From: an uncultured Bacteroidales bacterium | GTDB taxonomy: Bacteria > Bacteroidota > Bacteroidia > Bacteroidales > FEN-979 | Length of the DNA: 64,000 bases | Reading direction: 5' to 3' | NCBI GenBank assembly: GCA_903885595.1 | Contig: CAISJJ010000129.1 | Coordinates: forward strand, 424-64,423 | Part shown: in pieces, positions 1-37,745 of the stretch | How positions within the stretch are numbered: position 1 is the first letter of the stretch | How the letters are laid out: each line of letters begins with the position of its first letter | Notes under the pieces: generated by a model | What the model saw: only the letters and a program-made list of their open reading frames with translations | The model's database searches: none | What the model was told of the DNA's origin: nothing | Translations under genes and position numbers: made by a program

Positions 1-1115
1 GAAACCATGGTAAATGTCTCATTGTGAAAATCACAGGCAGCTGTATAGTTATTTCCGATTTCACCATAAGTGAAAAAACCGATCAGAGGTTTTGCCCAAT
101 TTTGCCAGGCTTCATTAATTTCTTCAGAAATGGTTGGCCCCAAAGCATTGTGTCGGGCCATACATGAAAACAGGATGAGCATATCAGTCTCGCTGTTAAG
201 GAGGTAGAATTCATTGACTTTTTGCCGGGTATCCTCGATTATCTCGAACCCGGGAGAACTTGAGAATGTCACGACAGCTCCATTGGGAACAGTTCCTGCA
301 AAAATCAGAGATTTTTTAGTTGTATCCACATTGATCACTGCTCGTAATACATCCTGGGAATCAGGTTTTTTTATCAGTAAAGGGTATTCAACTCCGATTT
401 CAGGTAGGTCGGTGTCGCGTACATTCAAATAATCCTTATAAACATCAAGTGCGGGTTGACCATCGATGGTATACACAATATTTCCTTCCGAATGGGTAAT
501 GATTTTGTCGGCACCTATACTAACCCATCCGCTGGTAGCAATCCCATTGATTTCATAAAGGTCAGTGTTCAGGACCATGGCAATAGCACCATTGTTCGCG
601 AGGGTTTTTCCGGAGAATACAAACGTCTCCTTAAAACGGGCATCATCGCCTGCTAAACCGCCAAACATCCTGATCGCATTTCCGGTATGATGTTGGATCC
701 CTTTAACAAGTTGCTCTCCGTCGGTTTCAAGCCCACTGCCAAGAACGAGGATTGCGGGCTTTTTAAAAACATCTCCGGCCCATTCACCAATACTGTTTCC
801 CAAATTGAATGATGATTTTCCATTGCCATTGAACAGTTTAATTTCAAAGCTGCCGGGAATTAATGTCATCATCAGGCAAACCAACCCACCCTCTGTGATG
901 ACCTGATCCTGGCCGTCATACAGAAATTCGCCACAGGAACTGCAACCGAACACGCTGACATTCATCGTTTCGAGAAAAGAGACCAGTTCCTGAAGGTCCA
1001 GATCAACTGATGAAAAAATGACTGCAGCATTTGGATAAAAACCATCGTCTGTATTTTTACTCCATGCTTGCCTGAAACCTTTGACGGAATCAGTGTGGAT
1101 TGTTTTAATAATCAT
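1..1115 (-). CDS. FIST N/C-domain sensory protein, 3' end runs off the window
   Basis: Manual translation from ATG 1115: MIIKTIHTDS...VFGCSSCGEF...MFGGLAGDDARF...LRAVINVD...LILFSCMARHNALG...LIGFFTYGEIG...FHNETFTMV. These are typical FIST motifs. The ORF is missing from the ORF track because it has no stop inside the window. Confidence 0.88.
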   Translation of the reverse strand, partial: MIIKTIHTDSVKGFRQAWSKNTDDGFYPNAAVIFSSVDLDLQELVSFLETMNVSVFGCSSCGEFLYDGQDQVITEGGLVCLMMTLIPGSFEIKLFNGNGKSSFNLGNSIGEWAGDVFKKPAILVLGSGLETDGEQLVKGIQHHTGNAIRMFGGLAGDDARFKETFVFSGKTLANNGAIAMVLNTDLYEINGIATSGWVSIGADKIITHSEGNIVYTIDGQPALDVYKDYLNVRDTDLPEIGVEYPLLIKKPDSQDVLRAVINVDTTKKSLIFAGTVPNGAVVTFSSSPGFEIIEDTRQKVNEFYLLNSETDMLILFSCMARHNALGPTISEEINEAWQNWAKPLIGFFTYGEIGNNYTAACDFHNETFTMV

Positions 1116-1248
1116 ACGGGTATGTTTAAGGTCGGGTAACTTTGAACAAATATACAACTTTCAACAAATTGATCAATTGTTTTCAAATGTGACACCCGGG
1201 ATGCAGAATATAGCTATTTTTGTAAATGTTAAGTTAATCAGACTATTT

Positions 1249-3624
1249 ATGAAGAATGTAATTTATCCGCTGTTCCTTTTGGTTTTTTTTGTTCAAATTG
1301 CAGCAGCTCAGAATTCACGGTTGATCCCCAAAACTGACCAACCTGTTTATTTTGATATTTCCCCTCCGCTGAGGGATATGGTCAAAATGTTACCCGAGCA
1401 ATATGATGGAAGCTGGAAAGAGACTGTCGTGAAAAATTTCTTTGACCTTAATGGGGAACAGCAGCGTGGACCTTTCATCAACGATCCGGGATTACAGAAT
1501 CATAATGGCTGGCTACCTGCCGATACAACGATTCAGAATTTTGAGGGAATGGGAAACATCAGTGGTTATATTCCGCCTGATACACACGGTGAAGCAGGAT
1601 TGGATCATTTTTTTCAGACTGTAAATTGTTCATATTCAATATACAACAAGAGTGGTGGAAAGATCCTGGGACCCTTTGCCAATAGTTCTGTCTGGCATGG
1701 GATGCCTAATAATGCAAACAGCGGTGATGCAATTGTCATTTATGATGAGCAGGCAAACCGATGGTTTTTTTCTCAGTTCTCGCTTCCAAATGGTTCATCC
1801 ACAGCCCCTTTTTATCAAATGATCGCAGTGTCTCAAACCCCTGATCCAACTGGCAGTTGGTACAGGTACCAGTATGAATTCTCTGATATGCCCGACTATC
1901 CCAAGTTTGGGGTTTGGCCTGATGCCTATTACATGTCGGCAAATCTTTTTTCAGGAGGAGCCGGTTGGGTCGGCAATGGAGCATATTGTTTTGACCGTGC
2001 AGCGATGCTTTCGGGAAGCCCCGATGCTTTGCGTGTTTCTTTTACCCTTCAACCAGGGGAGGAGGGGTTTATTACCCTTTTACCCGCTGATTGCGATGGA
2101 ACTTTTCCGGTTTATGGAACCCCGAATTATTTTACATATATCCGAACCAACGACAACCAGCGGCTGGGCGTGTTTGAATTTCAGGTTGATTGGGGAACTC
2201 CGGCTAATTCGAGTTTTGGAAATTTACTTTATCTGGATGTCAATCCATTTGGCACACTTGGTGGCTGGGGGGGTGGGATTCCCCAGAAGGATTCGCCGCA
2301 ATTGCTGGAAACGCTCTCTGACCGCCTGATGTACCGGCTTCAGTACAGGAAATTCAACGAATATGCATCCATGGTGCTAAATCATACGGTTGAAGCTGAT
2401 TTGGGTGTTGCTGGGGTAAGGTGGTATGAATTGCGAAAGGCAAATGAAGCCTGGAGTATATACCAGCAGTCGACCTATGCTCCGGCCGACGGCAACTACC
2501 GCTGGATGGGAAGCATTGCGCAGGATACCGCCGGCACTATTGCACTTGGCTATTCGGTCTCCGGTACCAATCTCTATCCGGGTATCCGATACACCGGAAG
2601 GTTAAAAACGGACCCGCTTAACCAGATGACCATCATGGAAAAAGCGATTATTGACGGCGGAGGTTCACAAACCGGCAATTGGAGTGGCCGTAGCCGCTGG
2701 GGTGATTACAGTGCCATGAGCGTTGATCCTTCAGCCCCGACAACCTTTTGGTATACAACAGAGTATTATGCATCGACCTCCTCAAGCAGCTGGCAAACAC
2801 GCATTGCCTCTTTTACTTTTGATAATGTTTTTTCTTCGGCAGTTTCATCCTTCCCTTCCCGTTTATGCTCAACAAGCACCGACTCCTCTCAACTCAACGC
2901 CTATGGCTATGGAGGATCAGGAACTTACACCTATACCTGGACTTCCATTCCGGAAGGATTTTATTCTGCTGTACCTAGCCCGAAGGTCAAGCCGCAGGAG
3001 ACAACCATATATATTGTAGCAATAAGCGATGGGAGTCAAACCAGGATCGACACTACCGAAGTCTCCATCGTCATGAACCTGGAAGCATCTGCCGGAAATG
3101 ACACCATCGTATGCTGGTATACATCACCCGTTCCCCTGTATGCCACGGCAACAAATTATAGCCGAATAGCATGGGGTACAGCAGGCGACGGATATTTTTC
3201 CAATGCATCTTCGCTGGTAACTGATTATTTCCCAGGGATGCAGGATAAAACAACTGGTTCTGTCAACCTGATATTGCTTGCTATACCCATAGCCCCTTGT
3301 GCTTCCAATTCCTTTAGCCCCAAGCATATTATTCTTGATCCCTGCACCGGCATTTCAGAACCTGATGCCGGTATCGTAAAAATCACCATTCAACCAAATC
3401 CGGCCCACGGGCAGGTTATGATCACGGTGAACGGACTAAAATGCAATGCTTCGCTCAAAATAAAAGGGATAGATAGCCAGACTATTTATTCGGATAATGT
3501 TGATCCGGCAGGAAAACAGGTTGTGACGAAGCAATTGGATGTAACAGGATACCCATCAGGATTGTATCTGTTACAATTGAACTGCGACGGTCAGATTACC
3601 ACATCCCGCTTTATTGTTCAATAA
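1249..3624 (+). CDS. Secreted T9SS type A sorting-domain protein of unknown function
   Basis: Signal peptide MKNVIYPLFLLVFFVQIAAAQ (start 1249 preferred over TTG 1081). C-terminal QPNPAHGQV...SGLYLLQL...SRFIVQ sorting domain. The core has PPD, YDEQANRW, DYPKFGVWPDAYY and RWGDY motifs. Confidence 0.85.
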   Translation: MKNVIYPLFLLVFFVQIAAAQNSRLIPKTDQPVYFDISPPLRDMVKMLPEQYDGSWKETVVKNFFDLNGEQQRGPFINDPGLQNHNGWLPADTTIQNFEGMGNISGYIPPDTHGEAGLDHFFQTVNCSYSIYNKSGGKILGPFANSSVWHGMPNNANSGDAIVIYDEQANRWFFSQFSLPNGSSTAPFYQMIAVSQTPDPTGSWYRYQYEFSDMPDYPKFGVWPDAYYMSANLFSGGAGWVGNGAYCFDRAAMLSGSPDALRVSFTLQPGEEGFITLLPADCDGTFPVYGTPNYFTYIRTNDNQRLGVFEFQVDWGTPANSSFGNLLYLDVNPFGTLGGWGGGIPQKDSPQLLETLSDRLMYRLQYRKFNEYASMVLNHTVEADLGVAGVRWYELRKANEAWSIYQQSTYAPADGNYRWMGSIAQDTAGTIALGYSVSGTNLYPGIRYTGRLKTDPLNQMTIMEKAIIDGGGSQTGNWSGRSRWGDYSAMSVDPSAPTTFWYTTEYYASTSSSSWQTRIASFTFDNVFSSAVSSFPSRLCSTSTDSSQLNAYGYGGSGTYTYTWTSIPEGFYSAVPSPKVKPQETTIYIVAISDGSQTRIDTTEVSIVMNLEASAGNDTIVCWYTSPVPLYATATNYSRIAWGTAGDGYFSNASSLVTDYFPGMQDKTTGSVNLILLAIPIAPCASNSFSPKHIILDPCTGISEPDAGIVKITIQPNPAHGQVMITVNGLKCNASLKIKGIDSQTIYSDNVDPAGKQVVTKQLDVTGYPSGLYLLQLNCDGQITTSRFIVQ

Positions 3625-3860
3625 ACCGGTTTGACGGGCGTGCCCGGCATGTATTTAAGGAAAATATTCCTGAAGCTTTCTTATGGATGATGTATCCTGT
3701 TGCCGACTGGATAAACGCTGCATTGAAATGTTTACCTCTTAGAATGCTTCAAAATGATCTGTAAGGTAAATTGACATTTAATTTTTCAACAAATGGTTCC
3801 CATTCCAAATATTTATTACATTTAGATCGCAAAAAATCAATCACTGTTAATTGATTAACA

Positions 3861-4631
3861 ATGGAATATAATATCCTGAAAATCCAAATTGCTGACCGTA
3901 TTGCCATCGTGACCATCAGCCGTCCTGCTGCACTGAATGCGCTGAATACGAATTTTTTTCAAGAGCTGAATCACTTTATTGATGATATTGAGCCACGGGA
4001 TGATGTCAAGGTTTTAATCATTACCGGTGAAGGAAAATCCTTTGTAGCTGGTGCCGATATTGCCGAAATGGCGAACATGAGCGCTGACGAAGGGTACGCT
4101 TTTTCAACCTATGGTCAGCGTACTTTCGACAGGCTTGAGCATCTTCATATTCCTGTTATAGCTGCTGTGAACGGGTATGCGCTAGGCGGTGGATGTGAAC
4201 TGGCCATGGCCTGTGATTTTCGAATTGCCAGTAAACTGGCAAAGTTTGGGCAGCCCGAGATGAACCTGGGTATGATTCCAGGGTACGCTGCAACACAAAG
4301 ATTGTCAAGGCTAACAGGCCTTGGGAATGCGCTCTGGCTCATTTTGACGGCGGAGACTATTTCGGCTGATGATGCATTGCGGATTGGTCTTGTGCAAAAA
4401 GTGACTGAGGCGGAATCTCTTCTGGATGAGGTGATGAAGCTGGCGTCAAAGATAGCAGGCAATGGATCTGAGGCGGTTACTGTTTCGAAAAAAGTGATAC
4501 GTGACGGCTTCTCCATGGATTTCAAGCAGGCCTCTGAATTGGAAGCAGCCGAATTTGGAAAACAATTTGACCGCGAACCAACCAAAGAGGGGATGAGAGC
4601 TTTCCTTGAGAAACGCAAACCAAACTGGTAA
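3861..4631 (+). CDS. Enoyl-CoA hydratase (crotonase)
   Basis: FVAGADI, NGYALGGGCELAMACDFR, FGQPEMNLGMIPG motifs; both catalytic Glu present. Confidence 0.95.
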   Translation: MEYNILKIQIADRIAIVTISRPAALNALNTNFFQELNHFIDDIEPRDDVKVLIITGEGKSFVAGADIAEMANMSADEGYAFSTYGQRTFDRLEHLHIPVIAAVNGYALGGGCELAMACDFRIASKLAKFGQPEMNLGMIPGYAATQRLSRLTGLGNALWLILTAETISADDALRIGLVQKVTEAESLLDEVMKLASKIAGNGSEAVTVSKKVIRDGFSMDFKQASELEAAEFGKQFDREPTKEGMRAFLEKRKPNW

Positions 4632-4637
4632 TAATAA

Positions 4638-4830
4638 TTTGAAAATTTGAAGATGTGAAGATGTGAAGATTTGGAAATGAGGTAATTATAGCAACAGATG
4701 CTGAGAATACCGTGATAATTATTAGTAGCGCTGGTTTTGATCTTTAATCTGTGGTTTTGATCTTTGATCTTTGAGTTTTGATTTTCATTTTTGGTTTTGA
4801 TTTTTGATTTTTAAGTTGTGGTTTTGCATT
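4638..4830. repeat. Intergenic 8-mer (TTTGAAGA/TGTGAAGA) array followed by TTTTGAT/TCTTTGA arrays
   Basis: 4638-4679 reads TTTGAAAA TTTGAAGA TGTGAAGA TGTGAAGA TTTGGAAA; 4733-4828 carries repeated GGTTTTGATCTTTGA / TTTTGAT units. Confidence 0.85.
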
Positions 4831-4873
4831 TTGCAATTATTTCACAGAGATAAACCCCAAATAAGAAAAAAAT

Positions 4874-6211
4874 ATGTCTTACGAAGAACGATTACAACAT
4901 GTTTCGGTATTGGGCGCCGCAGGGAAAATGGGAAGCGGTATTTTGCTGCTTACCGCGGTTGAAATGGCCGACATTAGCCTGAAGCCTGAAAATAAAGGAA
5001 AACCCTTTGTTCTGAATGCCATCGATGTTTCGGATGAAGCCCTGTCGGGGGTGATGAAATATTTAAAGGCCCAGGTTCTCAAAATGGCAGAGAAAAAGAT
5101 GGTAGGATTGCGGAAGGTCTATGCTGATCGTTCCGACCTGATCGACAATGATGAGATCATAGATCAGTACATTTTTGATGTCCTGACCCTTGTTCGACCA
5201 TCCACCAGGATAGAGGCGGCTTATGATTCGAAAATGATATTTGAGGCCATAAAAGAAGATCCTTCGTTAAAAAGCAGCATTTTTTCCAGGATCTCAGCCA
5301 ATAATCCTCATCAACCCTGGTTTTTTACCAACACCTCCTCCATCCCAATATCGAAGCTCGATGAGGATGCCGGTCTTGCCGGACGGATCATCGGGTTTCA
5401 TTTCTACAATCCGCCTGCCGTACAAAAGCTGGTCGAGATCATACGGGCTGAACATACCCTTCAGGAGGTGGAGGCATTTGCACAACAATATGCAAAAAAT
5501 CTGCGCAAGGTGGTAGTTCCTTCGCATGACAAAGCTGGCTTTATTGGCAATGGTCATTTTATGCGCGATATCCTGCATGCGGCCGGCGAAGTTGATAAGC
5601 TAAGCAAGGATTTCACCTTTGTTGAGGCGGTTTATGCTTTGAATAAAATCAGCCAGGATTACCTGGTTCGACCGATGGGAATTTTCCAGTTGATCGATTA
5701 TGTAGGCGTTGACGTTTGCAGTTTCATCATGTCGGTGATGAATCCGTACCTGCCTGGCGAAGAGCTGCACAGTCCGCTTCTCGACAAACTTCTTTCACTT
5801 GGGGTTAAGGGAGGTCAGTTTTCCGATGGTTCCCAGAAAGATGGCATTCTGAAGTATGAAAAGGGCCGGCCGGTTGCAATTTTCGATCCTGAAAAAAACA
5901 GCTATGTTGCGATCTCTGATTTCCAACCAAAGGTGGACGAAAAACTTGGCCCGATGCCTGTTCCTCCTGCCTGGAAGGCTGTTGTTGGCAGCAAAACAAA
6001 AGATGAACTGCTTCGCGGATATTTTGATCAGCTTAAATCGGCCTCAGGCCTTGGTGCAGGCCTGGCAAAAGATTATGCCAACCGTTCCTGTGCAATCGGA
6101 CTGCAACTTGTTACTTCCGGGGTTGCCTTCAACGAAAACGATGTAAATACCGTCCTGCTGACGGGTTTTTTCCATGCATATGGTCCTGTTAACAATTACC
6201 TGAATTCATAA
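4874..6211 (+). CDS. 3-hydroxyacyl-CoA dehydrogenase family protein
   Basis: Rossmann VLGAAGKMGSG, FEAIKE, TNTSSIPI, GFHFYNPP, GFIGN and MGIFQLIDYVGVD motifs. Confidence 0.92.
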   Translation: MSYEERLQHVSVLGAAGKMGSGILLLTAVEMADISLKPENKGKPFVLNAIDVSDEALSGVMKYLKAQVLKMAEKKMVGLRKVYADRSDLIDNDEIIDQYIFDVLTLVRPSTRIEAAYDSKMIFEAIKEDPSLKSSIFSRISANNPHQPWFFTNTSSIPISKLDEDAGLAGRIIGFHFYNPPAVQKLVEIIRAEHTLQEVEAFAQQYAKNLRKVVVPSHDKAGFIGNGHFMRDILHAAGEVDKLSKDFTFVEAVYALNKISQDYLVRPMGIFQLIDYVGVDVCSFIMSVMNPYLPGEELHSPLLDKLLSLGVKGGQFSDGSQKDGILKYEKGRPVAIFDPEKNSYVAISDFQPKVDEKLGPMPVPPAWKAVVGSKTKDELLRGYFDQLKSASGLGAGLAKDYANRSCAIGLQLVTSGVAFNENDVNTVLLTGFFHAYGPVNNYLNS

Positions 6212-7629: not shown

Positions 7630-8589
7630 TTGAAAAACCGGATAACCTCTCTCTTTGGCATTGATTTCCCAATCATCCAGGCCGGGATGATCTGGTGCAG
7701 TGGATGGCGGCTTGTTTCGGCTGTAAGTAATGCCGGCGGACTGGGATTACTTGGTGCGGGTTCAATGTCGCCAGGCTTGCTTAAAGAGCATATCGGAAAG
7801 TGTAAAGCAGCAACCAACAGGCCTTTTGGAGTTAACATCCCATTGCTTTATTCACTTGTTGATGAACAGTTCGATGTAATAATCCGTGAAGGAGTAAAGA
7901 TTGTTTTCACTTCAGCAGGGAATCCGGCAATCTGGACTTCCATATTGAAAACACATGGTATTACGGTTGTCCACGTAATCGCAAACGTTAAGTCGGCATT
8001 GAAATGCGAACAATCAGGCGTGGATGCCATTGTTGCTGAAGGGTTTGAGGCCGGCGGCCACAATGGTAAGGAAGAGACCACTACTTTAACGCTGATTCCG
8101 TTGATAAAGAAAGCTACCGCGTTGCCTCTGATCGCTGCCGGTGGTATCGCAAGCGGTCGAAGCATGCTGGCTGCATTTGCTCTTGGCGCCGAAGGGGTTC
8201 AGATAGGCAGCCGTTTTATTGCATCTGAAGAATCATCTGCACATCCCGCTTTCAAACAAAGGATTCTGGAAACCGGTGATGGCGGTACATCCCTGGCATT
8301 GAAAAAGGTTGTTCCTGTTCGACTGATCAGGAATTCTTTCTTTCAAAAGGTTCACCAACTGGAAGATTCCGGCGCTACTGCAGAAGAACTTAAAGAATTG
8401 CTTGGCAAGGGCCGGGCAAAACTCGGCATGTTCGATGGAAATTCAGAGGATGGTGAACTTGAAATCGGACAGGTTGCTGCATTAATCAGTCACATTCAGC
8501 CAGCAGGGGAAATCATCAGCGAAATTGTTGGTGAATTTGAAACAGCTAGAAAAGAACTCCTTGAATATCGAATATCGAATGTTGAATGA
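7630..8589 (+). CDS. FabK / nitronate monooxygenase family flavoprotein (enoyl reductase-like)
   Basis: PIIQAGM, GGLGLLGAG, VAEGFEAGGH, IAAGGIASG and GVQIGSRF motifs; TTG start. Confidence 0.9.
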   Translation: MKNRITSLFGIDFPIIQAGMIWCSGWRLVSAVSNAGGLGLLGAGSMSPGLLKEHIGKCKAATNRPFGVNIPLLYSLVDEQFDVIIREGVKIVFTSAGNPAIWTSILKTHGITVVHVIANVKSALKCEQSGVDAIVAEGFEAGGHNGKEETTTLTLIPLIKKATALPLIAAGGIASGRSMLAAFALGAEGVQIGSRFIASEESSAHPAFKQRILETGDGGTSLALKKVVPVRLIRNSFFQKVHQLEDSGATAEELKELLGKGRAKLGMFDGNSEDGELEIGQVAALISHIQPAGEIISEIVGEFETARKELLEYRISNVE

Positions 8590-8602
8590 TGAATGTCGAA
8601 GT
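8563..8602 (+). repeat. GAATRTC heptamer arm overlapping the 3' end of the FabK-like gene
   Basis: GAATATC GAATATC GAATGTT GAATGAT GAATGTC GAAGT; it encodes the last residues EYRISNVE and the TGA stop. Confidence 0.9.
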
Positions 8603-23485: not shown

Positions 23486-23618
23486 GAATTACCAATTACC
23501 AATGACTAATTACCAATGACCAGTATGCAGTTTAACATGATTCCTGATAAGATTTTTTGCGATTTCAGAAATTTTAAAAAATCGTCATTGGTCATTGGTC
23601 ATTGGTAATTGGTAATTC
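23486..23618. repeat. Long inverted heptamer cassette (ACCAATK / MATTGGT)
   Basis: GAATTACCAATTACCAATGACTAATTACCAATGA against the reverse complement of the right arm GAATTACCAATTACCAATGACCAATGACCAATGA; spacer is about 60 nt. Confidence 0.92.
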
Positions 23619-29106: not shown

Positions 29107-32100
29107 ATGCCTTCCAGCGAATCGATAAAAATCACCAACGCCTCTGAACATAATCTCCGTTCGGTTAGTCTTGAATTCCCAAAGAACAAACTGATTGTGG
29201 TTACCGGTGTCTCCGGATCAGGGAAATCATCGCTTATTTTCGATGTATTATACCGGGAAGCCGAAAGTCGCTATCTTGGCTCGTTTTCATCATTTGCCCG
29301 GCAGTTCATGGGCAAACTGAAAAAACCAGCAGTTGAAAAGGTGGATGGATTGTCACCTGCCATTGCCCTCGATCAGAAATCGGTGGTCTCCAATCCCCGC
29401 TCAACGGTTGGAACCATTACGGGCATATATGATTCGCTCCGGTTACTGTTTGCCCGCATCGGTCATCTGCCCGACAAAGGGGTGCCATTTCCATTGAACA
29501 GGAGTTTGTTTTCTTTTAATTCGCCCGAAGGCGCCTGCCCGGGATGCAAGGGAATTGGTGTTGAGGATTTCCTTGACCCGGAGTTATTGATTGCCGATCA
29601 AAACCGGACCCTGCGTCAGGGAGCGCTTAAAATTACAGCGCCCAATGGCTATATCATCTATTCACAGGTGACCCTTGATGTGCTTGACCAGGTTTGCCGG
29701 TCCGAAGGGTTTCATATTGATATCCCCTGGAAAGACCTTACACCAGAACAAAAAAATATTGTCCTTTACGGCAGCGACAAGATCGAAATTCCTTACGGGA
29801 AACATCCCCTCGAATCGCGTATGAAATGGAGTGGCATAACAGCGAAACCACGTGAACTGGGTTTTTACAAGGGGATTCTTCCGGTTATGGAGGTCATACT
29901 GCAACGTGACCGGAACAAAAATATCCTGCGGTTTGTTCGCAGCGGGCAATGTAAAGCATGTGGCGGCCGACGGCTAAATGATAAAGCCCTTTCGGTGAAA
30001 ATTCCCGGTGAAAGTACGATAGTTCATGAAATCAGACATGCTGACGAGAACACCGTCCATGGTTTTGATGGAACCATCCATGCAGATGAGAAAACCATCC
30101 AAGCATACGAAGATACTATCCATGAAGAAGAAGGAACCATCCCTGAATACGAGGGAACCATCCTTCCTTTAAACAAAAAAGAACCAACCTTTTTAAAATC
30201 ATACAACATTGCTGAACTGGCAGCGCTTCAGCTGGATGATCTTCAGAGTGTACTCCGGGGCATCCACTTCGAAAAACCAGATCAGATGATCGCAGGTCCA
30301 ATTGTCACACAAATATCGAAGCAGGTAGACCTGTTGAAACGGCTGGGACTTTGTTACCTGACGACCGATCGCGATTCAACCACCTTGTCGGGTGGGGAAT
30401 CTCAGCGTTTGCGAATGGCTACGCAGGCCGGAACCGGGCTAAGCGGTCTGATCTGCATTTTCGATGAACCCTCGGTCGGGCTGCATCAGCACGATATAAA
30501 AAATTTGATTGACATTCTGAAGGAAATCCGGGACAAGGGCAACACTGTAATCGTTGTGGAACATGAAGAGGAATTCATGCATCATGCCGATTGGCTGATC
30601 GATATTGGTCCTGGACCGGGAACTAACGGGGGCGAAGTGTTGTTCAACGGCACGTTGGAAATGGCCCGTACCCTGTCAGATACTGAAATCAGGAAAAGCC
30701 GGACCTTTTCCTTCCTGTTTGGATTCGAAAAGTTTGAAGGTGGAATCCCTCGGTCAGGACCCATTCCCATGGATTGTAACGGTAAACGCGTACTTCCTGA
30801 GGCAGGATTTATAACCATTGAAGGAGCTTCAGCGCGCAATCTAAGGAACATCGATGTCACCTTTATGCTTCAGGCCCTGAATGTAGTTACAGGAGTATCA
30901 GGCGCTGGAAAATCTACACTGACGAATCATATCCTGGGAGCATTTTTGAATAATAAGCTGCATGATGCCAATGAAGATGTAGGGAAGCACCTGGAAATCA
31001 AAGGCTGGGAAAGGATTGGGAAACTGATCTCCATTGACCAGGCCCCTATCGGCCGCACTCCGCGCAGCAATCCGGCCACCTACACCGGGTTGTTTGATTA
31101 TATCCGCGATCTCTATGCACGGCTACCGCTGGCAATCAGCCGAGGGTACGATAAAAGCCGGTTTTCATTCAATACAGCAGGGGGTCGCTGTGAATCCTGC
31201 CAGGGTGCAGGCTATCAGCAGGTGGGCATGCATTTCATGGGAAATGTGGAAGTGTTGTGCGAGGCGTGCGAAGGCAGACGGTTTGACGATGAAACACTTG
31301 AAATTACCTGTTCCGGCTATGGTGGTTATATTTCATCGCCCCCCGAGCTTACACAAAACAACCATTTTGACGCAGGGGTTACCCCAAAACCTGGAAAAAA
31401 TATTTCTGAAGTTTTGGAAATGACAGTTGCTGAGGCCCTTTCGTTTTTTTCAGATGAACCTAAGATTGCGCGATATCTTGGAACATTAGATAGTCTTGGC
31501 CTGGGATATCTTACACTTGGGCAGCGGTCTTCAACCCTGAGCGGCGGCGAAGCCCAACGAATTAAACTGGCAACTGAACTGGCAAAACCGCAATCGGATC
31601 ATACCCTCTACATTATGGATGAACCGACTACCGGATTGCACCAGGCTGATACCGGAATCTTGCTTAAAGCCCTCGACCGCTTGATAAAACAAGGCCATAC
31701 CGTCATCCTGATTGAACATCATTTGGGACTCATCGCAGCTGCCGATCATATCATCGACCTTGGCCCCGGAAGCGGACGCGATGGCGGGCGATTGATTTTT
31801 TCGGGGTCGCCGGAGGAGATGATTAATTGTAAGGATTCATTTACTGCTGAAGCGCTGAATGAATATCGAATATTGAACAACGAATATCGAATATCGAAGT
31901 TTTTTTCTAACGAAAATCAAGGTGTTTCAACCATACTGTCACAGGGCAATTCATTCGATGTTCGACATTCGACATTCGATATTCAACCTTCAATCTCCCT
32001 AAAGGGCATCTCCACGAACAACCTCAAACACATCGATGCCATTATCCCGCACAACAAGATCACGGTAATCACGGGTGTTTCCGGAAGCGGAAAATCTTCC

Positions 32101-34581
32101 CTGGCATTTGATACCATTTTTGCCGAAGGGCAGAACCGTTTCCTGGAAAGCTTCTCTCCTTATGTGCGAAGTCGCATCGGGCTTAAGGAAAAGGCCGATT
32201 TTGAAAACATTTCCGGACTTACACCCACGTTTGCTGTCGACCAGGGTGGCACCAGCCGGAATTCTCGTTCCACCGTAGGAACCATGACAGGTATCTATGA
32301 CCATTACCGGCTTTTATTCTCGCGCATCGGGAGAAAGGAGGAGGGGAAGGAATCTCGAATATCGAATATTGAATATCGAATGTCGAAGTCTGACCCTGAC
32401 CAGCAGAATGGCAAAATCGTAAATCGTAAATCGTATATCGTAAATCCTCCGCCTTCCTCCAGTCTCTTTTCCTTCAACCACAAGCATGGCGCTTGCCCCG
32501 ATTGCGACGGATTGGGTTTGCTAACGGTTTGTGATCCGGAAAAATTGATTACCCACCCTGGGAGATCCTTGGTGGATGGCGCCATGGATGGTACCAAGAC
32601 CGGGAAATTCTATGGCGATCCATATGGGCAGTATGTGGCCACCCTCAAAGAAGTCGGCGTTCAACATGGCATTGATTTTAACCACACATGGGATTTACTT
32701 TCGAGAGAGGCAAAGGAGATTGCTTTGTATGGAACCGGAGAGGAGATGTACCAAGTTACCTGGGAATTCAAACGGGATGGCCGCATCGGGGAACATCACT
32801 TTACAGGACCCTGGAAAGGAATGGTGACCCTAGTCAATGAAGAATACAGCCGTAAACATGCCGACCATCGGGGCGAAAGCATGATATCGCTCATGAAATC
32901 TGGACCATGTCTTTCCTGTTCTGGGACAAGGTTGCGAAAGGATGCACTGGAGTATGTCGTTCAGGGAAAAAATATTGCTGAGGTTTCGGCGCTGTCGGTT
33001 TCGGCATCGGTCACCTTCTTTAAATCTTTGCTGCCTCAGCTATCAAATTCAATGGAAGTGGAGTCTGCCAAACCACTGATTGGTGAAATTTTACGGAAAC
33101 TAGAGTTTCTATCCGGACTTGGCTTATCATACATTACCATCGACCGCATTTCTTCTACCTTGTCGGGTGGCGAATCCCAACGCATCAGGCTGGCCGGGCA
33201 GCTTGGCTCAGGCCTGACCGGTATCACCTATGTTCTTGATGAACCTACCATCGGACTTCATCCCAGGGATACAGCTAAACTGATGAAACTAATCCGTTCA
33301 CTGCAGGAAAAAGGCAATACTGTCGTAATTGTTGAACACGACAGGGATGTCATCCTCTCAGCCGATTACATCCTTGACATCGGTCCTGGCGCCGGAAAAA
33401 CCGGCGGAACCGTGGTGGCAGCAGGAACACCATCCGAAATTATGAATAATCCCGCTTCAGTAACTGGTCCCTATCTTTTGGAACAGTCAGGCATTTTGCC
33501 TTTGAAAACTTCATCGAAAGCCCTCACGGGGTTAAGCGATGATCTTTCTGCCCAGTCTCGTAGTTTGTCTCTTGGTACTTTCTCAAGCGGGGCCATGGCA
33601 AGTGATAGTCTGAAATCAACCAGGATCAGCCGGAAAAGTATCGGATATTGCCATCGAAACCTGAAACCCGGGCTGGTCATAAGGAATGCCTTTGCCAATA
33701 ATCTTAAGGGTTTCGATCTTGAAATTCCCTCTACCGGGATAATTGCCATCACCGGCGTGTCGGGCAGTGGGAAATCCACTCTGCTATTTGAAGTGATACT
33801 TGCCTCCTGGGAAAATAACAGGCCTGTCGGATGTTCCGGCATTGATGGATTTGAACATTTTCAGCAAATCATCAGCGTTCATCAGCGCACAGGCTTTAAC
33901 TCCTCCCTTGCCACACCGGCCACTTATACTGGTGTTTTCGATCATATCCGCGACCTGTTCGCCGCTTTGTCTGATGCAAAACAATCGGGGGTTGGTAAAA
34001 GCGCTTTTTCATACCTGAATAAGGAGGGGAGATGCGCAACATGTGCCGGTGCAGGTCAGATCCGTATTTCCATGGATTTTCTGTCGGATGTGAATACCCC
34101 ATGTGAACAATGCCAGGGAAAGCGATACAATTCTGAAATCCTTTCATTCCGTTATCAGGAGCACAATATTGCAACCGTTCTGGAGATGACGGTTGCAGAA
34201 GCAGCTCTTTTTTTTAACGGTCATAAGAACATTTCACATAAACTTCAAATGCTTGACAAGGTGGGATTGGGTTACCTCCGGATCGGACAATCCCTTGAAA
34301 CACTTTCGGGAGGTGAATCTCAGCGCCTGGCACTGGCAGCCGAACTGATGAACCCGGGGAAGGGATCCGCATTATACCTGTTTGAGGAACCTTCGACCGG
34401 GCTTCATTTTCGCGATATTGAATTTTTAATGACGTTATTCCATCAACTGGCCGATCAGGGGAATACTTTGCTTGTAATTGAACATGATCCGATGATCATC
34501 GCTCATGCCGACCATGTAATTGAACTAGGGCCTGATGGAGGCGACCAGGGAGGATACCTGGTAAACGTCTCTTCGCCTTGA
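29107..34581 (+). CDS. uvrA: Double-length UvrA-family ABC ATPase (two fused class II-like UvrA units)
   Basis: Four Walker A motifs (GVSG[S/A]GKS[S/T]), four LSGGE[S/A]QR signatures, four [D/E]EP..GLH Walker B motifs and Zn-finger CxxC pairs; 1824 aa. Confidence 0.92.
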   Translation: MPSSESIKITNASEHNLRSVSLEFPKNKLIVVTGVSGSGKSSLIFDVLYREAESRYLGSFSSFARQFMGKLKKPAVEKVDGLSPAIALDQKSVVSNPRSTVGTITGIYDSLRLLFARIGHLPDKGVPFPLNRSLFSFNSPEGACPGCKGIGVEDFLDPELLIADQNRTLRQGALKITAPNGYIIYSQVTLDVLDQVCRSEGFHIDIPWKDLTPEQKNIVLYGSDKIEIPYGKHPLESRMKWSGITAKPRELGFYKGILPVMEVILQRDRNKNILRFVRSGQCKACGGRRLNDKALSVKIPGESTIVHEIRHADENTVHGFDGTIHADEKTIQAYEDTIHEEEGTIPEYEGTILPLNKKEPTFLKSYNIAELAALQLDDLQSVLRGIHFEKPDQMIAGPIVTQISKQVDLLKRLGLCYLTTDRDSTTLSGGESQRLRMATQAGTGLSGLICIFDEPSVGLHQHDIKNLIDILKEIRDKGNTVIVVEHEEEFMHHADWLIDIGPGPGTNGGEVLFNGTLEMARTLSDTEIRKSRTFSFLFGFEKFEGGIPRSGPIPMDCNGKRVLPEAGFITIEGASARNLRNIDVTFMLQALNVVTGVSGAGKSTLTNHILGAFLNNKLHDANEDVGKHLEIKGWERIGKLISIDQAPIGRTPRSNPATYTGLFDYIRDLYARLPLAISRGYDKSRFSFNTAGGRCESCQGAGYQQVGMHFMGNVEVLCEACEGRRFDDETLEITCSGYGGYISSPPELTQNNHFDAGVTPKPGKNISEVLEMTVAEALSFFSDEPKIARYLGTLDSLGLGYLTLGQRSSTLSGGEAQRIKLATELAKPQSDHTLYIMDEPTTGLHQADTGILLKALDRLIKQGHTVILIEHHLGLIAAADHIIDLGPGSGRDGGRLIFSGSPEEMINCKDSFTAEALNEYRILNNEYRISKFFSNENQGVSTILSQGNSFDVRHSTFDIQPSISLKGISTNNLKHIDAIIPHNKITVITGVSGSGKSSLAFDTIFAEGQNRFLESFSPYVRSRIGLKEKADFENISGLTPTFAVDQGGTSRNSRSTVGTMTGIYDHYRLLFSRIGRKEEGKESRISNIEYRMSKSDPDQQNGKIVNRKSYIVNPPPSSSLFSFNHKHGACPDCDGLGLLTVCDPEKLITHPGRSLVDGAMDGTKTGKFYGDPYGQYVATLKEVGVQHGIDFNHTWDLLSREAKEIALYGTGEEMYQVTWEFKRDGRIGEHHFTGPWKGMVTLVNEEYSRKHADHRGESMISLMKSGPCLSCSGTRLRKDALEYVVQGKNIAEVSALSVSASVTFFKSLLPQLSNSMEVESAKPLIGEILRKLEFLSGLGLSYITIDRISSTLSGGESQRIRLAGQLGSGLTGITYVLDEPTIGLHPRDTAKLMKLIRSLQEKGNTVVIVEHDRDVILSADYILDIGPGAGKTGGTVVAAGTPSEIMNNPASVTGPYLLEQSGILPLKTSSKALTGLSDDLSAQSRSLSLGTFSSGAMASDSLKSTRISRKSIGYCHRNLKPGLVIRNAFANNLKGFDLEIPSTGIIAITGVSGSGKSTLLFEVILASWENNRPVGCSGIDGFEHFQQIISVHQRTGFNSSLATPATYTGVFDHIRDLFAALSDAKQSGVGKSAFSYLNKEGRCATCAGAGQIRISMDFLSDVNTPCEQCQGKRYNSEILSFRYQEHNIATVLEMTVAEAALFFNGHKNISHKLQMLDKVGLGYLRIGQSLETLSGGESQRLALAAELMNPGKGSALYLFEEPSTGLHFRDIEFLMTLFHQLADQGNTLLVIEHDPMIIAHADHVIELGPDGGDQGGYLVNVSSP
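30046..30171 (+). repeat. In-frame 21-nt tandem repeat x6 inside uvrA
   Basis: ENTVHGF DGTIHAD EKTIQAY EDTIHEE EGTIPEY EGTILPL; DNA core ACCATCC. Confidence 0.85.
31861..31984. repeat. In-frame inverted GAATRTC cassette in the uvrA inter-unit linker
   Basis: Five heptads + GAAGT, about 50 nt spacer, then TTCGATGTTCGACATTCGACATTCGATATTC. Confidence 0.9.
32350..32445 (+). repeat. In-frame GAATRTC arm plus AAATCGT array inside uvrA
   Basis: Five heptads + GAAGT (32350-32389); AAATCGT x3 ATATCGT AAAT (32414-32445). Confidence 0.9.
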
Positions 34582-36803: not shown

Positions 36804-36828
36804 TATGCCGCACACAAATTATAATTCC

Positions 36829-36910
36829 TCACTTGTCATTCGTCACTCGTCATTGGTAATTGGTCATTAGTCATTTTTCATTTGTAAATCGTACCTCGTA
36901 AATCGTAAAT
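36829..36910 (+). repeat. Composite CAYTNGT + AAATCGT heptamer array between scoA and scoB
   Basis: CACTTGT CATTCGT CACTCGT CATTGGT AATTGGT CATTAGT ... AAATCGT ACCTCGT AAATCGT. Confidence 0.9.
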
Positions 36911-37578: not shown

Positions 37579-37745
37579 GAATGTCGAATGTCGAATATCG
37601 AATAACGAATATCGAATAACAAACCCATTATTTAGAAAATCTAAAATCCTAAAATGTTACCAGCAATTCGTCACTCGTCATTAGTAATTAGTCATTTGTC
37701 ACTTGTCATTCGTAAATCGTAAATCGTAAATCGTATATCGTAAAT
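37579..37745 (+). repeat. Composite GAATRTC + CAYTNGT + AAATCGT array between scoB and hmgA
   Basis: Six GAATNNC heptads right after the stop; a CAYTNGT block; AAATCGT x3 ATATCGT AAAT ending 4 nt before the ATG. Confidence 0.92.

Follow-up and report, generated by a model that had tools for sequence, protein, structure and literature searches.

A translated palindrome of heptamer arrays in the linker of a fused UvrA, and its dispersed family in a genus of freshwater Bacteroidales

The locus and its host gene

The window considered here is a 64-kb stretch of freshwater Bacteroidales DNA, in which one long open frame encodes two UvrA proteins fused in tandem (Table 1). Each chain contains two complete UvrA units, both missing the UvrB-binding domain; indeed, the alignment to 2R6F skips chain residues 139-282. 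The orthologs of relatives are also fused, with lengths of 1577-1764 aa, and fused UvrA proteins of 1600-1870 aa number at least 8000, including ones named Acidobacteriia and SAR324. The distant fused homologues that were aligned have short and mostly repeat-free linkers, and about 10 residues in the loop named site 2 below. Sequence comparison thus places the fusion before the repeat cassette that now occupies the linker; since the fusion is older and the distant linkers are short and mostly repeat-free, the cassette would have come into a linker that was already present when the clade arose. The opposite order, in which an intergenic hairpin was read through and caused the fusion, is ruled out, because fused UvrA proteins with non-repeat linkers are widespread outside the genus.

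Table 1. Coordinates of the host gene and of the heptamer features in the window
Feature	Positions	Strand	Description
Single family arm	8563..8602	+	Without inverted partner; ORF 7630-8589 ends in it, with nine codons (LEYRISNVE) and the stop
Tandem-fused UvrA-UvrA	29107..34581	+	1824 aa; ORF, translation, Pfam and NCBIfam UvrA matches in both halves
Left arm of UvrA cassette	31861-31900	+	Five heptads and GAAGT; encodes EYRILNNEYRISK
Loop (spacer) of UvrA cassette	31901-31953	+	53 nt; encodes FFSNENQGVSTILSQGNS
Right arm of UvrA cassette	31954-31991	+	Left arm inverted; encodes FDVRHSTFDIQPS
Site 2, second in-frame UvrA cassette	32350..32446	+	(GAATNTC)x5+GAAGT, 24-nt spacer, (AAATCGT)x4.7; encodes ESRISNIEYRMSKSDPDQQNGKIVNRKSYIVN
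Intergenic composite	37579..37745	+	(GAATNTC)x6, spacer, (ATTCGTC)x7, (AAATCGT)x5

Anatomy and folding of the UvrA cassette

The cassette is 131 nt long, lies entirely within the single open frame of the fused gene, where it is read as ...EALNEYRILNNEYRISKFFSNENQGVSTILSQGNSFDVRHSTFDIQPSISLKG..., and contributes about 42 residues to the translated linker. A preliminary description had recognised an imperfect inverted repeat of heptads, spacer and reverse-complement arm, translated in the linker between the UvrA units, and the sequence is as described there: positions 31861-31898 pair with 31954-31991 in an imperfect stem of 38 bp, and the RNA fold of 31850-31995 reaches -40.9 kcal/mol, versus a mean of -24.9 for shuffled sequences (z = -4.68; none of 200 shuffles as good). 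The left arm had been given as five GAATNNC heptads followed by GAAGT; five heptads and the closing GAAGT are present, in the order GAATATC, GAATATT, GAACAAC, GAATATC, GAATATC, GAAGT, but the second and third units deviate slightly from that formula. The loop is specific to the locus and diverges quickly among species. Across the 64 kb, the pattern GAATNNCGAATNNCGAA (up to 2 mismatches) has 35 matches against a mean of 3.1 in shuffled sequences, a count reached by 0 of 100 shuffles.

The hairpin does not correspond to a known RNA family: an Rfam search of the cassette returned sub-threshold matches alone, to generic hairpin miRNA precursors. RNA runs of the same study contain hardly any of the words sampled from the gene. 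An AlphaFold2 model of residues 731-1229, with 19 orthologs, has a mean pLDDT of 44.7, too low to be read, and the lowest values (27-31) fall in the linker. The peptides EYRILNNEYRISK and SFDVRHSTFDIQ are named as targets for metaproteomics.

A dispersed family of heptamer arrays

The left arm has exact 25-35-mers, with a non-periodic order of units, in common with seven other loci of the genome; the matches include a 35-mer at C27:22972-23006 and a 33-mer in C294. Therefore, the arm belongs to a dispersed, genus-specific family. The recurring order is GAATATC, GAATATT, GAACAAC or GATCAAC, GAATATC, GAAGT, and it is mirrored in the right arm; intergenic palindromic twins lie at C321:3659-3782 and C490:6112-6362. 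A 23-nt family motif has 137 matches in the genome G000 and between 0 and 112 in its congeners, and outside the genus it is nearly absent, while its reversed pattern, used as control, gives counts of 0-3. These matches support the view that the arm is a defined dispersed unit and not the product of random slippage, and the two further arms that had been reported in the window (at the start of site 2 and at the end of ORF 7630-8589) are both real.

Genome-wide, strict tandem arrays number 466 for period 7 and 205 for period 8, versus at most 10 for each of periods 5, 6 and 9-12, and the TRF listing has 1051 period-7 rows. The unit types form one mutational network, to which 460 of these 466 period-7 arrays belong. 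At least 36 of the 466 have an inverted partner no more than 300 nt away, a share which is a lower bound, since the strict detector misses imperfect arms such as those of the UvrA linker itself.

Copies of the family are mostly intergenic, and dozens are found in frame in conserved genes. Site 2, in the second UvrA unit, occupies the position of the UvrB-binding domain of canonical UvrA; its arm (32350-32389) is followed by the AAATCGT array at 32414-32446, with no inverted arm, and it shares an exact 32-mer with the intergenic positions 37714-37745. Its length is a multiple of three in 24 of 24 extracted orthologs. Other in-frame cassettes lie in a hydrogenase-like gene (C374), a FAD/FeS oxidase (C251), PurL (C250) and an alpha-2-macroglobulin-like gene (C217), so that the proposal that such cassettes create new peptide sequence holds well beyond the UvrA linker. 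Both at site 2 and in the loop of the hydrogenase-like gene the in-frame arrays differ from species to species. A TAT variant at site 2, which removes an in-frame TAA, was considered as proof of local selection and discarded: intergenic copies contain this unit too, and all that follows from it is that stop-containing copies cannot survive in the gene. The intergenic composite, which ends right before an ATG, shows the coding cassettes to be built from modules of the intergenic type.

Conservation at the orthologous linker

A strain-specific insertion, as had been envisaged, or any recent one does not agree with the distribution of the cassette, since a palindromic repeat cassette is found at the same UvrA position in about 20 congeneric species, represented by lake MAGs, throughout a genus-level clade of more than 20 species. 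When the linker is measured between the flanking anchors DLGPGSG and ITVITGVSGSGKSS, the distance is exactly 282 nt in 11 orthologs, even across switches of unit type. In the tree the GAATATC-type linker is widespread and the other unit types correspond to derived clades; the peptides encoded by the different types, EYRILNNEYRISK, EYLFTIYDLRLTK and ELPMANDQLPIKK, are wholly different.

Among 21 species pairs, identity at third codon positions is 83% in the arms versus 46% in the flanks, while at codon positions 1 and 2 it is 78% in the arms and 86% in the flanks; the loop is identical at 55% of positions, versus 78-83% in the arms. On these comparisons, the constraint on the arms is exerted at the nucleotide level and not on the protein. 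Pairing of the stem is retained: across 11 species 78.5% of the cells are paired, versus 24-46% in slid registers, and both sides have changed in 21 of the 38 stem pairs, a result matched by 0 of 500 shuffles. Whole units have been switched together in both arms, in the same register, giving ACGATTT/AAATCGT, GAATGAC/GTCATTC and CCAATGA/TCATTGG.

The type of linker partly follows the content of the genome. Where the GAATATC linker is intact (11 genomes), every genome has at least 12 matches to the family motif; where the linker is of another type or degenerate (also 11 genomes), 8 genomes have fewer than 10. Three genomes have the ACGATTT-type linker although they are rich in the GAATATC family. 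The GAAGTTC variant of the G002 linker has no other copy in the G002 genome, which points to local evolution. Gene conversion from other genomic copies was considered as sole homogeniser of the arms and rejected on these two grounds, the unique GAAGTTC and the three discordant genomes.

Decay and deletion of the cassette

In three species (L039, L040 and L054) in-frame internal deletions have removed much of the cassette, and L049 has lost the inner part of the palindrome; an out-of-frame deletion of 109 nt apparently splits the fused uvrA of one MAG. The palindrome is a deletion hotspot. The frame is kept in all orthologs with extracted linkers except L049. Heptamers are absent from the linkers of the L044/L051/L053 group, and those of L023 and L024 are degenerate. 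Orthologs lacking the family and having an alignable linker of the same length had been proposed as evidence against an inserted element, and G010 comes close to this case, with a single copy of the family motif and a linker of comparable length (312 nt) in which heptamers are not visible; however, its placement in the tree suggests a decayed cassette rather than an original empty site.

Origin and maintenance of the cassette

The explanation that we favour, with a probability of roughly 0.6, is that the cassette is a long-resident, tolerated and translated copy of a genus-specific dispersed hairpin, with arms held by processes acting on DNA. It sits in the pre-existing tether of a fused UvrA of class-II type, and there it would merely be translated as linker. 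Selection on the protein would demand just an open frame, in phase and of workable length, leaving the peptide sequence free to vary, and the sequence and palindromy of the arms would be maintained at the level of nucleic acid. The most likely causes would be slippage of the arrays, template switching from arm to arm and exchange with other genomic copies, acting on the background of a family consensus conserved across species. The preliminary idea of a dispersed, mobile or once-mobile element stands as regards dispersal; mobility at the UvrA site, the arrival of the cassette there and the process that keeps its arms alike are what we infer. By inspection, no direct repeat indicative of a target-site duplication, such as borders the terminal inverted repeats of MITEs (elements related to an autonomous IS), flanks the UvrA cassette or the C321 twin, and neither a transposase associated with the UvrA cassette nor an insertion scar was found. 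A RAYT or IS200-type transposase was considered as driver and dismissed, because the counts of Y1_Tnp (PF01797) genes do not follow the abundance of the repeats (0 genes versus 90 motif matches in G018, 0 versus 38 in G032, 8 versus 0 in G015).

Synonymous-site conservation, the constant 282 nt and covariation are also expected of a selected functional hairpin, which weighs against a mere passenger. It is possible, though we consider it doubtful, that selection keeps the hairpin as a cis-acting element within the coding sequence, with the peptide as a by-product. In the mRNA, the hairpin could delay the ribosome on its way from one UvrA unit to the next, letting the first unit fold first, or it could set the stability or processing of the message; in either DNA or RNA, its array could serve to bind a factor recognising the heptamer family. 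Such a role would agree with the third-codon identity of the arms where the flanks are saturated, with the covarying pairs in a fixed register, with an anchor distance that survives switches of unit type and with the family consensus kept in many species. However, the gene persists where the hairpin is decayed or lost (the L044/L051/L053 group, L023, L024, L039, L040 and L054), fused UvrA elsewhere works without it, Rfam gives no match, and similar cassettes turn over fast in unrelated loops of unrelated genes. Somewhat more speculative is the proposal that an undescribed, lineage-specific propagation system left the heptamer cassettes, the copy in the UvrA linker being kept by that system or co-opted. 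If so, a trans-acting factor would recognise, copy and homogenise defined hairpins of heptamer arrays, these would have been repeatedly written into tolerant loops and linkers of housekeeping genes, and the UvrA copy would have been kept, or co-opted as an intragenic hairpin, over the entire history of the genus.

An origin in place is unlikely. The cassette would then be an ordinary simple-sequence repeat of easily slipped AT-rich heptamers, extended by the polymerase from a chance seed, and its likeness to other loci would be convergence. The excess of period-7 arrays, the single network that holds nearly all of them and the GAAGTTC unit unique to one linker are in line with slippage, and among the long simple repeats of bacteria heptamers are the most frequent (Mrazek 2007, as reported in PMC4679880); yet seven other loci repeat exactly a non-periodic order of units that the right arm mirrors, and slippage alone fails to explain the conservation of units among species whose synonymous sites are saturated. 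The least probable reading, to which we give almost no weight, is that the open frame is an artefact, due either to mis-assembly across repeats or to a repeat without stops that connects two separate genes or the parts of a pseudogene. Short-read assemblies do break at repeats, Logan contigs end within the arms, the contig of the nearest relative stops short of the linker, and GAATATC has no stop in any of the six frames, so that frames could be joined by chance. Against it, contigs from independent runs cross the spacer and the right arm into the second unit: lake metagenome contigs from two studies match 31863-32353 without a difference and 31863-32379 with a single one. Independent MAGs of about 20 species agree with this arrangement, all extracted linkers but one are in frame, site 2 keeps a length divisible by three, and fused UvrA is widespread; the assembly artefact that the preliminary description had allowed for is thus contradicted.

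Relationship to known systems

REPINs and REP elements are reportedly mobilised by RAYT transposases. The family described here shares with REPINs the arrangement of two inverted short repeats around a spacer, the hairpin, the tens to hundreds of copies and a within-genome consensus; inverted hairpin doublets are present in many copies, although such a partner was recognised for just 36 of the 466 strict arrays. Unlike this family, REPINs lie outside genes and depend on a RAYT gene, a link that the PF01797 counts do not reveal, and the arms of the present family are heptamer arrays.

Tandem heptamers are known from other bacteria: the GGGAATC repeats of Xanthomonas include about 70 sites at which two arrays converge and could fold into a stem-loop (Rehm et al. 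2015, PMC4692102), and TAACTGA heptamers are found in Beggiatoaceae, cyanobacteria and some Bacteroidetes (MacGregor 2015, PMC4679880). Under the definition of LSSR as tandem units of 5-11 nt in excess (Mrazek 2007, as given in PMC4679880), the family shows the excess of tandem units, and slippage alone, with no shared descent, does not describe it. Like the heptanucleotide LSSR, including the cyanobacterial STRR, it consists of over-represented tandem 7-nt units, mainly intergenic and often near gene ends, with a lineage-specific and patchy distribution. Unlike them, it has many inter-related unit types, a defined non-periodic order in its arms and dozens of in-frame copies in conserved genes, one of which has kept its nucleotide sequence, with covarying changes, throughout a genus.

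The closest resemblance is to the Rickettsia palindromic elements, or RPE (Ogata et al. 2000, 2002, as described in PMC10969869), and the analogy drawn in the preliminary description is apt as regards behaviour. Both are dispersed palindromes of about 100-150 bp that encode no transposase; both are inserted in frame in unrelated conserved genes and translated at fold-compatible positions, with copies kept at orthologous sites in several species. The UvrA family probably belongs to none of the RPE consensus families, and it shares neither their peptide nor their lineage: unlike RPE, it has arms of tandem heptamers whose unit type and copy number vary, its copies are mostly intergenic, and, as RPE are described, it is set apart by its host, a freshwater Bacteroidales and not a Rickettsia, and by a peptide that is not conserved family-wide, because the peptide changes with the unit type.

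These cassettes remodel the linkers and loops of genes for repair and purine synthesis and of hydrogenase-like genes, and have apparently split a fused gene. They are also a warning for assembly and annotation: contigs break at them, they insert peptides of low complexity, and they can join or divide open frames. The UvrA linker offers a natural experiment in which a free peptide and a nucleotide hairpin that is conserved and covaries in more than 20 species separate the constraint on DNA or RNA from that on protein within one ORF. To our knowledge, in-frame coding palindromes are textbook matter for Rickettsia only; here, freshwater Bacteroidales, which are free-living, show RPE-like behaviour in elements whose arms are heptamer arrays that themselves evolve.

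The linker cassette and its host gene

The palindromic cassette lies between the two units of a fused UvrA (Table) and, as the preliminary description had proposed, it is part of the reading frame, encoding EYRILNNEYRISK...SFDVRHSTFDIQ. As RNA, the region forms a 38-bp stem with interruptions and a folding energy of -40.9 kcal/mol, against a shuffle mean of -24.9 (z = -4.68), and the heptad pattern is matched 35 times in the window versus 3.1 expected. Two further arms named in that description are real: the one at 32350-32389 is in frame inside the second UvrA unit, and the one at 8563-8602 provides the final nine codons and the stop of ORF 7630-8589. This ORF resembles a nitronate-monooxygenase-type gene, whose 3' end is overlapped by the single GAATNNC arm, with residues LEYRISNVE followed by a TGA stop. 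An assembly artefact, which had been considered, is contradicted by lake-metagenome contigs from two studies, which run from the spacer through the right arm into the start of unit 2 with 0-1 differences. The linker region modelled poorly in AlphaFold (mean pLDDT 44.7, too low for use), and an Rfam search with the cassette matched no family.

Table. Coordinates of the cassette and of other repeats in the window and in contigs (C-numbers) of the source genome
Feature	Position	Description
Fused uvrA ORF	29107-34581	single open frame, 1824 aa, two complete UvrA units
Left arm	31861-31900	GAATATC GAATATT GAACAAC GAATATC GAATATC GAAGT
Spacer between arms		53 nt
Right arm	31954-31991	inverted copy of left arm
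Site 2	32350-32446	between RLLFSRIG and SLFSFNH
Unit 1 insert	30070-30163	21-nt repeat GGAACCATCCATGAAGACGAA, x4.5
UvrA insert	31309-31395	residues 735-763 (CSGYGGYISSPPELTQNNHFDAGVTPKPG)
UvrA insert	33484-33645	residues 1460-1513, Ser/Leu-rich
Left-arm match	C27:22972-23006	exact 35-mer
Left-arm match	C294	exact 33-mer
Left-arm matches	C490, C321, C350 (two copies), C297	exact 25-28-mers
Palindromic twins	C321:3659-3782; C490:6112-6362	intergenic, same unit order mirrored
Palindromic pair	23487-23617; also at C124, C272, C502	in the window intergenic, (AATTACC)x5 + (GTCATTG/GGTAATT)x5, gap ~60 nt
TTGAATATCGAATATTGAATATTGATCAACGAAGTTTGAAGTATTCACTTCGTGA unit	C150:7290-7450; C56:5288-5760; C315:6816-6900; C209:9243-9325	
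Intergenic arrays	36824-36910; 37666-37745	grade from CATTNGT into AAATCGT units
Hydrogenase-like gene	C374:19223-20860	in-frame ATTTACG/AAATCGT palindrome in a loop
FAD/FeS oxidase	C251:2470-5589	in-frame array
PurL	C250:14551-18348	in-frame array
Alpha-2-macroglobulin-like gene	C217:18148-24552	in-frame array

A dispersed family of heptamer arrays

The source MAG (6.0 Mb, 44% GC) contains, by a strict detector, 466 tandem arrays of period 7 and 205 of period 8, with at most 10 for each of the periods 5, 6 and 9-12. Placed on crude longest-ORF gene calls (88% coding), the period-7 arrays are intergenic in 271 cases, lie across an ORF end in 74 and fall within an ORF in 121, 70 of these last being at least 30 codons away from either end. 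The 70 unit types of the period-7 arrays can be linked by mutation into a single network, which takes in 460 of the 466 arrays; the mean share in random sets of units was 33% and the maximum 65%. An inverted partner within 300 nt is found for just 36 arrays (control 3), indicating that palindromic cassettes are a minority class.

The left arm of the UvrA cassette has a non-periodic unit order and shares exact matches with seven other loci of the genome, which bears out the earlier view of a defined dispersed unit rather than generic slippage. A 23-nt arm motif has 137 matches in this genome and between 0 and 112 in each of 24 congeners; it is absent from 12 of the 16 searched genomes of the order's other families and present 2-15 times in the remaining four (15 in G039), all genomes compared being MAGs, whose assemblies are broken by repeats. 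A reversed-pattern control gave 0-3 matches per genome. The closest relative (G050, about 85% UvrA identity, carrying the uvrA locus L047) has no match, versus the 137 of the source genome; either a very recent expansion of the family or the loss of repeat-rich contigs from the G050 MAG may account for this contrast.

Other arrays are found in intergenic positions. Two in the window, composed of CATTNGT and AAATCGT units, each stop about 10 nt or less 5' of an ATG, so that the leader is filled up to the candidate start codon. A further repeat, the defined ~60-nt unit TTGAATATCGAATATTGAATATTGATCAACGAAGTTTGAAGTATTCACTTCGTGA, is made of heptads and a small CGAAGT/ACTTCG hairpin and forms tandem doublets at several sites. 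In four metagenome runs (X1-X4), the summed contig word depth in window 32388-32461 is 690-5950 over the AAATCGT array and 3-16 on its flanks, suggesting that this unit is extremely abundant community-wide in the lake, beyond this genome.

Age of the cassette and of the UvrA fusion

Fused orthologs come from about 25 MAGs of freshwater Bacteroidales, which bear the labels Draconibacterium, Prolixibacteraceae or Bacteroidales and originate from Lac Pavin, Loclat, Kiruna and the Experimental Lakes Area. About 20 of these orthologs have a repeat cassette flanked by the conserved anchors DLGPGSG and ITVITGVSGSGKSS, which are exactly 282 nt apart in 11 of them. GAATATC-type arms are the majority state among cassette-bearing orthologs. 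Left ACGATTT and right AAATCGT arms characterize one clade (L033, L034, L038), L042 has GAATGAC/GTCATTC and L055 CCAATGA/TCATTGG; each of these has kept the heptad register and switched both arms together. The linker of L043 contains a direct repeat, and that of the long-branched L044, L051 and L053 measures 312 nt, with heptamers not visible. In a phylogeny built from the flanking protein, linkers of the GAATATC type occur throughout and the other states are nested among them, indicating that the cassette is ancestral to the clade; thus, the strain-specific insertion envisaged in the preliminary description is not borne out.

A junction-spanning search retrieved at least 8000 fused UvrA proteins of 1600-1870 aa, including some named by their sources as Acidobacteriia and SAR324. 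In 13 out-of-clade representatives the inter-unit linker has about 20-45 residues, repeat-free in most, and the site-2 loop about 10. Since the fusion is widespread and these linkers are short, the cassette appears to have entered or grown in an existing linker, rather than having produced the fusion, which, judging from these comparisons, is the older of the two. In three fused UvrA proteins from other Bacteroidales genera (P0041, P0082, P0092), HPASSIQ-type seven-residue linker repeats are the three-frame reading of (CATCCAG)n, suggesting that the UvrA linker attracts heptamer arrays repeatedly.

Conservation and instability of the palindrome

Among seven GAATATC-type species (21 pairs), the flanking coding sequence is 86% identical at codon positions 1+2 and 46%, near saturation, at position 3; the corresponding values for the cassette arms are 78% and 83%, and the loop has 55% identity over all positions. 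The arms are thus without a codon signature, which indicates a constraint on nucleotides rather than on amino acids. Across 11 aligned species, pairing in the 38-bp stem stands at 78.5%, versus 24-46% in slid registers, and both sides have changed in 21 of the 38 pairs; the observed values were reached by none of 500 shuffles. At least 12 motif matches were counted in each of the 11 genomes whose GAATATC linker is intact. Of 11 others, whose linker is degenerate or of another type, eight have fewer than 10, and the remaining three are those of the ACGATTT-type clade. Arm state thus seems to track the abundance of the motif family, in a set of genomes that are phylogenetically non-independent.

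In-frame internal deletions have reduced the linker to 237 nt in L039, 231 nt in L040 and 252 nt in L054. In L049 (G005:C33) the interior of the palindrome is missing and GAATATCGAATATT directly abuts CAATATTCC; 173 nt remain, with a +2 frame, and the fused gene becomes two ORFs of 845 and 829 aa. As L049 is nested deep in the tree, its split would be a derived fission, which needs confirmation, since it comes from one MAG and an obvious ATG start is lacking in the second ORF.

Other in-frame arrays

Alignment to the solved structure 2R6F places site 2, the second in-frame cassette, at the position of the canonical UvrB-binding domain (chain residues 139-282), absent here. In 24 orthologs this segment measures 45-138 nt, a multiple of three in every case, and its arrays vary by species (GTCACGC, ATTCGTC, CATCCCG, GAAATCC, or GAATATC plus AAATCGT), even between sister species. 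L043 has a 135-nt octamer array (GGCAGTTG/GGCAGTCG), read as AVGSRQL repeats, and the AAATCGT array of the source genome shares an exact 32-mer with intergenic positions 37714-37745.

UvrA carries three further inserts. The 21-nt repeat is the core of one of about 64 residues in unit 1 (aa 302-364), with GTIHEDE-like heptapeptide repeats; its counterpart in L047, the nearest relative, is shorter, L042 carries a short insert of unrelated sequence at the same position, and the other aligned orthologs have none. Residues 735-763 have a counterpart in L047 only, and residues 1460-1513, preceding the last ATP-binding domain, form a segment far longer than in aligned orthologs.

The loop of the hydrogenase-like gene was compared in 13 genomes: the array type varies, congeners having other arrays, always in lengths divisible by three; in an out-of-family genome the loop is short. 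Two of the in-frame cassettes in this and the other three host genes are palindromic.

Maintenance of the cassette and comparison with known systems

On the best-supported reading, the cassette is one copy of a dispersed heptamer-hairpin family that has long resided in the linker and is tolerated there. This copy would be read as a tether between the UvrA units, its amino-acid sequence being immaterial, and selection on the protein would purge only stop codons, frameshifts and unworkable lengths, with arm sequence and palindromy kept at the nucleic-acid level. We favour, as the upkeep process, a DNA-level homogenisation that would proceed through slippage, template switching between the arms and exchange with other copies. 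A hairpin under selection, as RNA or as DNA, fits the data almost as well, but several lineages have lost or shortened the hairpin and yet retain the gene, which argues against an essential function for it. The GAAGTTC variant in the linker of one relative (G002), found nowhere else in that genome, and three GAATATC-rich genomes with ACGATTT-type linkers argue against exchange with other copies as the sole process. A REPIN-like mechanism is unsupported, as Y1_Tnp genes do not follow repeat abundance across genomes.

The analogy with Rickettsia palindromic elements, drawn in the preliminary description, holds for behaviour, these being likewise dispersed, palindromic and placed in frame where unrelated genes tolerate them (PMC10969869), but the cassette falls outside that family. 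Its arms are made of the same substance as heptanucleotide long simple repeats: inverted pairs are described for the GGGAATC heptamers of Xanthomonas (PMC4692102), and TAACTGA heptamers form intergenic arrays in Beggiatoaceae, cyanobacteria and a few Bacteroidetes (PMC4679880). Particular to the present case are the genus-wide fixation of one copy, the conservation of its synonymous sites and the covariation of its two arms.
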